In this document: positions 31,947 to 32,401 of the stretch, piece by piece
Layout of the letters: each line of letters opens with the position of its first letter
Position numbering within the stretch: the first letter of the stretch is position 1
Notes under the pieces: generated by a model
What the model was told of the DNA's origin: nothing
The model's input: only the letters and a program-made list of their open reading frames with translations
The model's database searches: none
Made by a program: the position numbers and the translations under genes
From: Escherichia coli
GTDB lineage: Bacteria > Pseudomonadota > Gammaproteobacteria > Enterobacterales > Enterobacteriaceae
NCBI RefSeq assembly: GCF_030013595.1
Contig: NZ_CP122768.1
DNA: 64,000 nt
Reading direction: 5' to 3' (one strand)

Positions 31947-31977
31947 CTCGCTGATTAAAATATCCAGGGAAGGAAAT

Positions 31978-32241
31978 ATGATCGATCTGGAAAACCAGGA
32001 ACGGGAGATTATCAATTTAATGTTCAGCCAGGGTATATCCTGGATAACTGCCGTGCGTATCAGGCATAAACTATCACTTGCTGAAGTAAGTAAAATGTTA
32101 GGTATCTCCATTAATTCTCTAAAACAGATCGAAAAGACGGAACGGCTTAGTTCAAACATCAAAAGCAAAATGGCAGGAATTTATGGTTGTCCACCAGAGT
32201 TGCTGATATGCCCTTCCTGGATGACGGCTGAACATAAATGA
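31978..32241 (+). CDS. Small XRE-family helix-turn-helix protein at the position occupied by yjjJ/hipH in K-12
   Basis: 87-aa ORF with RBS AGGGAAGGA (31966-31974); HTH-like core LSLAEVSKMLGISINSLKQIEK; AT-rich. Confidence 0.55.
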   Translation: MIDLENQEREIINLMFSQGISWITAVRIRHKLSLAEVSKMLGISINSLKQIEKTERLSSNIKSKMAGIYGCPPELLICPSWMTAEHK

Positions 32242-32339
32242 ATAGATTCGTGAATAGATACTTGAATGTATTTTATTTTCTATCCATATGAAAAATAATA
32301 GTAAATCTATAAATCAGTTGCTATTGATGAATAGATACT
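32238..32339. repeat. Three copies of TGAATAGAT(A/T)C in the AT-rich spacer
   Basis: Copies at 32239-32250, 32251-32262 and 32328-32339, immediately downstream of the HTH ORF. Confidence 0.4.
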
Positions 32340-32340
32340 A

Positions 32341-32368
32341 AAAAGCCGGAGCAGTCTCCCGCTCCGGC
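32341..32368 (-). terminator. deoD intrinsic terminator
   Basis: Minus strand reads GCCGGAGCGGGAGACTGCTCCGGC followed by TTTT, directly after the deoD stop. Confidence 0.6.
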
Positions 32369-32401
32369 TTCACAAGGCAATCGCCTTTCAGCAAAACACA
32401 A

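Follow-up and report, generated by a model that had tools for sequence, protein, structure and literature searches.

A candidate HipH operator, probably orphaned, beside a small XRE-type gene at the lplA-deoD junction of Escherichia coli

In the K-12 strain of Escherichia coli, HipH (YjjJ), a Ser/Thr kinase of the HipA family, is studied as a toxin related to persistence and genome stability. The gene hipH is monocistronic, encodes its own N-terminal helix-turn-helix (HTH), which "may bind DNA," and has no adjacent antitoxin gene (PMC8262856); overexpressed HipB can rescue YjjJ toxicity (PMC9948734). Induction of hipH by cyclic di-GMP (c-di-GMP) acts via its promoter region, and the HTH of HipH is required for toxicity (PMC11452175). 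By Reg-Seq, two repressor sites were reported in the K-12 yjjJ promoter, one of them, at +30..+45, being left without an assigned factor in a mutagenised region that ended at +45 (PMC7567609). Here, the corresponding locus, i.e., the lplA-deoD junction, is described in a stretch of 64,000 nucleotides of E. coli DNA (contig NZ_CP122768.1 of assembly GCF_030013595.1, hereafter the window), where hipH is missing and where a gene of 264 bp encoding an XRE-type HTH protein of 87 amino acids stands in its place. Next to this gene lies an upstream module of the hipH type, with repeated boxes of sequence TGAATAGAT (ATCTATTCA in the hipH sense). The explanation considered probable is that of an orphaned HipH operator beside an XRE gene which is dispensable and restricted to some lineages, and which took the place of the hipH coding sequence.

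In strain MG1655, hipH sits between deoD and lplA, just as a first-pass annotation of this DNA had stated, in the same orientation as deoD and with its stop codon abutting that of lplA. The window is read in the reverse orientation of K-12 at this site, with lplA (lipoate-protein ligase A; 30930..31946, plus strand; taken from the list of open reading frames (ORFs) and the RefSeq annotation of an identical strain) as the left conserved flank and deoD (purine nucleoside phosphorylase; 32402..33121, minus strand; supported by tblastn, annotation and the ORF list) as the right one. By BLAST, lplA is 97.5% identical to its K-12 counterpart up to 31945, where the homology with K-12 ends, namely at the end of lplA, to resume at 32233 with the reverse complement of the hipH ATG. 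The interval between the two flanking genes thus measures 455 bp, against a hipH gene of 1,332 bp in K-12. Since the breakpoints fall at 31945 and 32233, they bound an allele-specific cassette of 287 bp (31946..32232) at the position of the ~1,330 bp of hipH coding sequence, and hipH-bearing genomes match bases 287-455 of the segment alone, at ~80-82% identity. Immediately beyond the cassette, a relic of the hipH start codon is read as CAT at 32233..32235 (minus strand), the BLAST boundary in the K-12 alignment being at position 2772 of the K-12 locus. Between 31900 and 32260, neither tblastn nor DNA comparison found similarity beyond chance to the hipH coding sequence, i.e., to its N-terminal winged HTH or to its HipA_C kinase domain. 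The cassette was also considered as a diverged or antisense remnant of hipH and rejected as such, local alignment scores on both strands being within those of shuffled controls and tblastn and blastp returning nothing. BLAST, the Pfam HTH_3 match and the predicted fold thus agree with the first-pass annotation that hipH is absent and that its place is taken by a short stretch, rich in AT, which carries a small HTH ORF of the XRE type. Compared with the K-12 locus, the site between deoD and lplA, the deoD terminator, the distal box, the position of the spacer and the tandem ATCTATTCA boxes are the same; what differs is the loss of hipH, the presence on the opposite strand of the XRE-type gene, a degenerate third box and a spacer that represents another deep allele.

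At the scale of the species, allele frequencies were tallied over 5,426 complete E. coli genomes, carriers being defined as matching at least 80% of the 455-bp segment with 92-100% identity. The HTH allele was found in 4,057 of them and hipH in 1,346, the two never occurring together; a search for a diverged hipH paralogue in E. coli with the HTH allele found none, sensitive blastn placing hipH in the same 1,348 genomes. As such, to say that hipH has been replaced is correct relative to K-12 but not for the species, in which the HTH allele is the majority (75%). Carriers of the small gene include O157:H7, ST131, HS, and O104:H4, and the allele is an ordinary strain polymorphism, very common and generically annotated. 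With about three quarters of complete E. coli genomes, O157:H7, ST131 and O104:H4 included, lacking HipH, results obtained on HipH in K-12 are therefore not generalisable to the species.

The boxes of the window are all read on the minus strand in the hipH sense and were delineated by allele alignments and repeat counts. Copies of TGAATAGAT start at 32239, 32251, and 32328, and the window holds 4 copies where 0.24 are expected, a number reached in 0 of 100 shuffles. Box 1 (32239..32247) is the promoter-distal unit of the tandem array, box 2 (32251..32259) is found 12 bp from it, and box 3 (32263..32271), perfect in K-12, HS and E. albertii, is degenerate here (TGAATGTAT); the distal box (32328..32336) lies ~90 bp upstream of box 1 and adjoins the deoD terminator. 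Three repeats had been reported by the first-pass annotation, and these copies are real, but the fourth and degenerate one at 32263-32271 had been missed, by which the array is recognised as three tandem 12-bp units plus a distal one. An alignment of ten alleles gives these tandem units as TGAATAGATTCG / TGAATAGATACT / TGAATrkATTT, together with the distal unit. Between box 3 and the distal box, an AT-rich spacer (32270..32327, minus strand) exhibits a -10-like TAAAAT (32275-32270) abutting box 3 and a weak -35 region, and probably holds a relic of the hipH promoter. In K-12 the tandem boxes end 3 nt before the hipH ATG, and the boxes of the window, the degenerate one included, are in register with them. 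Between K-12 and the window, three box copies are identical and the ~57-bp spacer separating them is essentially unalignable, the E. coli spacer existing as two deeply diverged alleles; the -35/-10-like elements abutting box 3 are nonetheless kept in both allele types in a spacer alignment of 15 loci. Rather than in the replaced segment, where the repeats had first been placed, all of them lie in the deoD-hipH intergenic part common to K-12. A single copy of the tandem-box 31-mer is present per E. coli genome. The search for the repeat elsewhere in the window returned one further copy at 8527-8535, just past the end of a minus-strand gene; it is single and has no tandem partner, and is thus probably due to chance. 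Whether the boxes are more conserved than the ORF within E. coli was not informative, the 31-mer of boxes 1 and 2 being present in 4,997 genomes, which is comparable to the 36-mers taken from the ORF.

The distribution of the boxes across species follows hipH. One genome per species was scanned with LplA, yielding 80 lplA loci with 73 measurable junctions. Most species have an empty lplA-deoD junction of 40-100 bp; among the 80 loci, hipH occurs in 6 (60-95% identity), hipH remnants in 2, the 87-amino-acid gene in 3, and unrelated cassettes in others. In constant orientation, TGAATAGAT was present in 13 of the 73 junctions, 11 of which hold either HipH (whole or as a remnant) or the HTH gene, and 2 a short unidentified insert, and in 0 of the 60 junctions that are empty or filled with another cassette. 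Four further hipH loci, with 48-58% identity, were taken from a protein search without regard to the motif; they belong to Salmonella enterica, Erwinia, Cedecea, and Pantoea. The distal box lies at about -100 to -113 in all four, and three of them have tandem boxes at about -36/-24/-12, those of Pantoea being ~11 nt further upstream (-47/-35/-23). The position of box 1 relative to the hipH ATG is constant in 11 of 11 hipH loci of the Enterobacterales, and the upstream layout as a whole recurs in these 11 and in 16 distant homologues. Farther away, a metagenome scan using the DNA pattern TGAATAGATNNNTGAATAGAT alone returned 80 loci, in 18 of which a HipH homologue is directly downstream of the boxes; 16 of these homologues are only 33-48% identical and borne by contigs of 43-67% GC, and the distal box is 85-122 bp upstream of the start in most of the 16. 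Among the other 62 metagenome loci, 3 are the E. coli XRE allele and the rest resemble simple-sequence or chance matches, no HipH-like winged-HTH signature being found downstream of the boxes in any of the 62. Both the N-terminal recognition helix (SQ[AP]T[FVL]SR) and the wing (GxARxxxY) are kept throughout this set of HipH proteins. That the repeats would be the own binding sites of the 87-amino-acid protein, as suggested at first, is at odds with boxes that are identical in K-12 and present upstream of hipH homologues across bacteria.

As side observations on the array, the layout upstream of distant hipH genes comprises a distal box and a tandem array of 2-6 units of 12 bp, with 0-30 nt between its end and the ATG, and the copy number of the 12-bp box varies, one unit being deleted in two E. 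coli alleles (L088 and L004) and six tandem units being present in a metagenomic locus (L146). Independent truncations of hipH were encountered in E. coli WB61, Phytobacter diazotrophicus, and Kosakonia sp. S29; the first two retain the N-terminal 47-49 codons of hipH, i.e., the HTH part, together with the boxes, and the third an internal fragment. Two other loci (L019 and L081) have decaying boxes alone.

Taken with the Reg-Seq repressor footprint, whose site at +30..+45 maps onto boxes 2 and 1, this co-conservation makes the boxes a good candidate for a HipH autoregulatory operator, which we hold to be likely. The boxes would be read by the invariant N-terminal winged HTH of HipH, which would thereby control its own gene. 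In a cross-species alignment (K-12 4621692-4621761; locus L001 2693-2762), the hipH -10 (TAATAA, with an upstream TG) immediately adjoins box 3, and TATACT marks the -35; with the promoter placed in this way, the transcription start site used as reference by Reg-Seq (4621716) is probably ~20 nt too far upstream. The resemblance to the autoregulated promoters of type II toxin-antitoxin (TA) modules, where repeated operators lying over the promoter and 5' UTR are bound by antitoxins or by fused HTH proteins, resides in sites repeated downstream of the -10 and ahead of the start codon, the auxiliary site upstream and a repressor footprint at these sites in K-12; the difference is that in HipH the DNA-binding domain is fused to the toxin, that the sites are direct repeats, and that the operator of the window has lost its gene. 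No description of the allele or of the motif was found in the searchable literature, and such a family-wide HipH box seems undescribed. If it is an operator, it bears on the autoregulation of HipH, on the unassigned Reg-Seq repressor site and on the promoter-level induction by c-di-GMP, and as such it is a more useful outcome than the small gene itself.

In the window, the distal box, the promoter-bearing AT-rich spacer and the three tandem ATCTATTCA boxes would together constitute an orphaned hipH control module, and the XRE gene, oriented the other way, would have taken the exact place of the hipH coding sequence. The exactness of the removal is deduced from the end of the small ORF, which runs from an ATG at 31978 to a TGA at 32239-32241 that corresponds to the first three bases of box 1, in E. 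coli as well as in Superficieibacter and in Enterobacteriaceae UBA3516. Transcription probably enters the small ORF from the lplA side: as 31 bp separate the ORF from the end of lplA, no terminator intervenes and the Shine-Dalgarno sequence of the ORF (AGGGAAGGA, 31965..31973, plus strand, 4 nt upstream of the ATG) is strong, the ORF is probably translated from ytjB-lplA read-through transcripts. These would end at the intrinsic terminator of deoD (32340..32370, minus strand), a hairpin GCCGGAGC...GCTCCGGC forming a perfect inverted repeat with a 10-bp stem, followed by a T-run on the minus strand and kept in K-12; this terminator probably also ends the plus-strand lplA-HTH transcripts, for which the T-run is poor. 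With no known occupant of the boxes here, the relic promoter, if active, would drive antisense transcription of the small gene and lplA, which is speculative. At the level of the order, hipH lies downstream of deoD, with lplA absent, in Salmonella, Cedecea, and Erwinia; in Pantoea it adjoins ytjB/smp, with another left neighbour instead of deoD. From these positions, hipH is probably the ancestral occupant in Enterobacterales; most lineages would have lost it, leaving an empty junction, and a few, including most E. coli, would carry the XRE cassette, alleles being exchanged by homologous recombination through the conserved flanks. The allele replacement is an allelic cassette swap at a variable junction, combined with a likely autoregulatory operator, and not a new kind of system.

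Several points weigh against an orphaned HipH operator. The main experimental datum against binding by HipH is the ChIP-exo (chromatin immunoprecipitation with exonuclease digestion) of myc-tagged YjjJ, which gave no binding sites (PMC8464067), and Reg-Seq assigned the yjjJ site at -24..+18 to MarA (PMC7567609), a "MarA repressor site" that, judging from the aligned promoter elements, may simply be a weak core promoter. The metagenome evidence is conditioned on the presence of the motif. In the spacer, a simple consensus scan called no promoter and gave no convincing promoter or terminator match; we infer the activity of the relic promoter, as well as the co-transcription of the small ORF with lplA, from sequence. 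Finally, the whole hipH promoter/operator module is recognisable beside the XRE gene in three genera, namely E. coli, Superficieibacter and UBA3516, despite a number of synonymous substitutions per site (dS) of 1.3-2.0 between their small ORFs, at which synonymous divergence is saturated. Such a persistence is unexpected for an orphaned element, and the XRE protein or a host factor could therefore use the module. Gene flow from co-existing hipH haplotypes would explain it without a function and is directly supported in E. coli: in strain PM06121, the XRE gene is found together with a spacer of the K-12 type (window 32272-32327), which shows recombination between haplotypes within or near the box array.

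As for the small gene (31978..32241, plus strand), it is intact in the window and annotated in RefSeq as WP_000566139.1, a "helix-turn-helix domain-containing protein." The Pfam model HTH_3 (PF01381) matches residues 25-76 with 25.3 bits for a cut-off of 23, and Sigma70_r4 passes marginally (25.3 for a cut-off of 24.1), because the HTH motif is common to both families; NCBIfam makes no assignment, the PezA and MqsA models being weak and below threshold. In the AlphaFold 2 (AF2) model, with a predicted local distance difference test (pLDDT) of 89.5, a five-helix core of the Cro/C1 type spans residues 22-76 (helices 22-29, 34-41, 45-54, 59-69, and 73-76) and is preceded by an extra N-terminal helix (4-18). 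The best sequence match among solved structures is CylR2 (E 0.0036), and Foldseek matched CylR2, C.BclI, DdrO, SinR, P22 c2, and 434 Cro, with 9k3w, 2xiu, 2b5a, 3qq6, and 2r1j as the best structures, the matches to CylR2, C.BclI, SinR, P22 c2, and 434 Cro having a probability of 0.99-1.0 and a root mean square deviation of 1.6-2.3 A over 52-60 columns. The five-helix fold is thus shared with CylR2, the controller (C) proteins of restriction-modification systems, SinR-N and the P22 c2/434 Cro domains; different from CylR2-type regulators are the extra helix, a conserved C-terminal CP(S/T)W(M) tail and the position of the gene at the 3' end of a housekeeping operon, instead of upstream of a regulated partner. 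What the protein amounts to is a generic HTH of the XRE/Cro type. Its relatives, as retrieved by two large protein searches, are confined to Escherichia/Shigella, a few 87-amino-acid orthologues with 39-50% identity and one homologue of 129 amino acids elsewhere; an exhaustive HMMER search recovered the same-locus orthologues, this homologue and generic multi-HTH proteins, i.e., no characterised distant relative. The small gene stands as an uncharacterised regulator restricted to Enterobacteriaceae. Most likely, its product is a small repressor that binds DNA as a dimer, with a target other than the HipH boxes; no conserved palindrome adjoining the gene was identified, the nearby repeats being direct. 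The 129-amino-acid homologue, the only one found outside the lplA-deoD site (L089, 3258-3647), has an N-terminal extension, is preceded by an ORF of 35 codons and adjoins a DUF2357/PDDEXK_7 (restriction-like) gene, a context hinting at a defence-island or TA-like origin of the XRE domain.

Among the alternatives, the one that survives best, though still doubtful, is that the small ORF of E. coli is a decaying and functionless remnant of the cassette that displaced hipH, its intactness here being devoid of function. Within E. coli, CAG is changed to TAG at codon 50 (Q50*), in the predicted recognition helix, in 1,691 genomes of the 4,057 carriers as counted with an exact 36-mer containing TAG; strain HS bears this allele as an annotated pseudogene, frameshifted and truncated alleles also exist, the ratio of non-synonymous to synonymous substitutions (dN/dS) reaches up to 0.7, and no homologue has a known function. 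Against decay, the CAG version of the same 36-mer, otherwise identical in context, is found in 2,035 E. coli genomes, the ORF has a strong Shine-Dalgarno sequence, and the length of 87 amino acids, the frame and ~24 invariant residues are kept over four lineages at 39-50% identity, i.e., E. coli and the same-site orthologues of Superficieibacter, UBA3516 and a third enterobacterium (L091), with a dN/dS of 0.15-0.32 between genera and a clear third-position excess. Whether the ORF is conserved as coding among strains, a matter raised by the first-pass annotation, thus receives a divided answer: a premature stop interrupts it in ~42% of carriers, but it is intact here and constrained between genera. 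The small ORF is coding and under purifying selection between genera, and it is dispensable within E. coli, lineage-restricted and fast-evolving. With natural Q50* knock-outs in ~1,700 sequenced strains, what it does can easily be probed. The Q50*-type allele had three matches on plasmid-labelled records, which may be plasmid-borne chromosomal segments or mis-assigned contigs.

Somewhat less probable, and rather unlikely in our view, is that the 87-amino-acid protein stands in for the N-terminal domain of HipH, binding the ATCTATTCA boxes and silencing the leftover promoter, which would spare its own gene and lplA from antisense transcription, so that gene and boxes form one functional unit. 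The persistence of the box array, of the promoter elements in the spacer and of the distal box beside the XRE gene in the three genera is in its favour, as are the ORF stop embedded in box 1 in all three and the lack of any blastn-detectable hipH in E. coli with the HTH allele. Yet the residues predicted to contact bases change between genera, I45, N46, and Q50 of E. coli being replaced by P/A, D/E, and R, respectively, while the boxes are identical, and XRE dimers normally read palindromes, the boxes being direct repeats with a 12-bp phasing. Across distant bacteria, moreover, the presence of boxes tracks HipH and not XRE genes. The two elements also come apart within the family: L091 has an intact ORF and decayed boxes, the protein is lost by a stop codon in the Q50* genomes and HS, the sole Q50* allele inspected, has perfect boxes, and the PM06121 recombinant shows that hipH haplotypes can supply the module anew. 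A comparison of the XRE family with the HipH N-terminal domain by hhalign gave a probability of 9%, hence no profile similarity. On this basis, the 87-amino-acid protein probably does not read the boxes. In a broader version, which we consider unlikely, hipH and the XRE gene would be two long-lived alternative alleles, maintained at a single site across Enterobacteriaceae and sharing one operator/promoter, with the XRE protein as a toxin-free "placeholder repressor" that keeps this HipH control region closed; if true, it would amount to a trans-specific toxin/no-toxin polymorphism with a common control region, in which unrelated HTH folds use one module.

Slightly less plausible again, the boxes could be sites for a conserved host factor, such as MarA/SoxS/Rob or a c-di-GMP-responsive regulator, and not for HipH. 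The MarA site annotated by Reg-Seq in the yjjJ promoter would fit, as would the action of c-di-GMP at the hipH promoter via an unidentified factor (PMC11452175), the negative ChIP-exo of YjjJ (PMC8464067) and the persistence of boxes in alleles lacking hipH. The MarA call covers the spacer, however, and so probably the real -35/-10 instead of the boxes, and the +30..+45 site that does coincide with the boxes received no factor. The association of boxes with hipH homologues on remote contigs of 43-67% GC makes a shared enterobacterial host factor implausible, and the single occurrence of the tandem-box 31-mer in each E. coli genome and the consistent lack of boxes in empty junctions further argue against it.

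The first proposal of an orphan HipB-like antitoxin or anti-addiction factor, left after the loss of a HipA-like toxin, had in its favour the small XRE-type HTH of about the size of HipB and the rescue of YjjJ toxicity by HipB overexpression (PMC9948734); it is now very improbable and largely refuted by synteny, hipH being monocistronic with no partner gene, the ORF lying on the opposite strand and being absent from every sampled hipH-bearing genome, and the lplA-ORF gap of 31 bp being too small for a toxin gene. HipB (~88 amino acids), which is the XRE-type antitoxin of hipBA and its repressor, and the 87-amino-acid protein are alike as small Cro/C1-type HTH proteins with a generic HTH_3 signature. 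Their difference lies in the 87-amino-acid gene having no adjoining kinase or operon partner, in the absence of a specific sequence match or top-ranking structural match, and in the neighbouring repeats, which are direct and phased by 12 bp. The operators of HipB, for their part, are TATCC-N8-GGATA palindromes. HipB was found neither among the NCBIfam hits, nor in a PDB profile search at E<=1, nor in the top 50 of Foldseek, and blastp of the protein against HipB gave no match; no HipH similarity was seen either. The small gene adjoins no HipA-family kinase gene, and it co-occurs with hipH in none of the 5,426 complete E. coli genomes and in none of the loci from 80 species. As for a HigA/MqsA-like type II system, the small toxin gene that would be expected next to it is likewise missing, the neighbours being lplA upstream and the hipH operator relic and deoD downstream, with no further ORF. 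The 87-amino-acid protein is very probably not an antitoxin.

Other candidate features of the segment were examined and set aside. A minus-strand ORF from the relic hipH ATG (27 codons in E. coli) was rejected, its start and stop not being kept in Superficieibacter and UBA3516 and the third-position excess favouring the plus-strand frame. A structured RNA was discarded, Rfam giving no match at E<=1 over 31700-32600. Terminal inverted repeats, as in an element resembling a miniature inverted-repeat transposable element (MITE), were not retained either: the short inverted repeats of the cassette are not collinear, are absent in other genera and were judged to be chance. Two complementarities involving the ORF were noticed, i.e., between the Shine-Dalgarno region 31962-31973 and 32211-32222 (83%; codons 78-82, CPSWM, of the same ORF), and, as a 13-nt inverted repeat, between 32017-32029 (codons 14-18) and 32226-32238 (the end of the ORF); they are not kept in other genera and thus are likely due to chance.

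Beyond hipH and the XRE gene, the lplA-deoD junction appears as a multi-cassette hotspot over the 80 species genomes (L003-L082). The cassettes found there comprise (i) chaperone-usher fimbrial operons (L011 and L057-L059), (ii) single fimbrial-like subunits (L042 and L050), (iii) a RAYT-like gene with repetitive extragenic palindromic (REP) elements (L036), (iv) a lipoprotein (L031), (v) a membrane protein (L051), and (vi) a secreted protein of 406 amino acids (L066).

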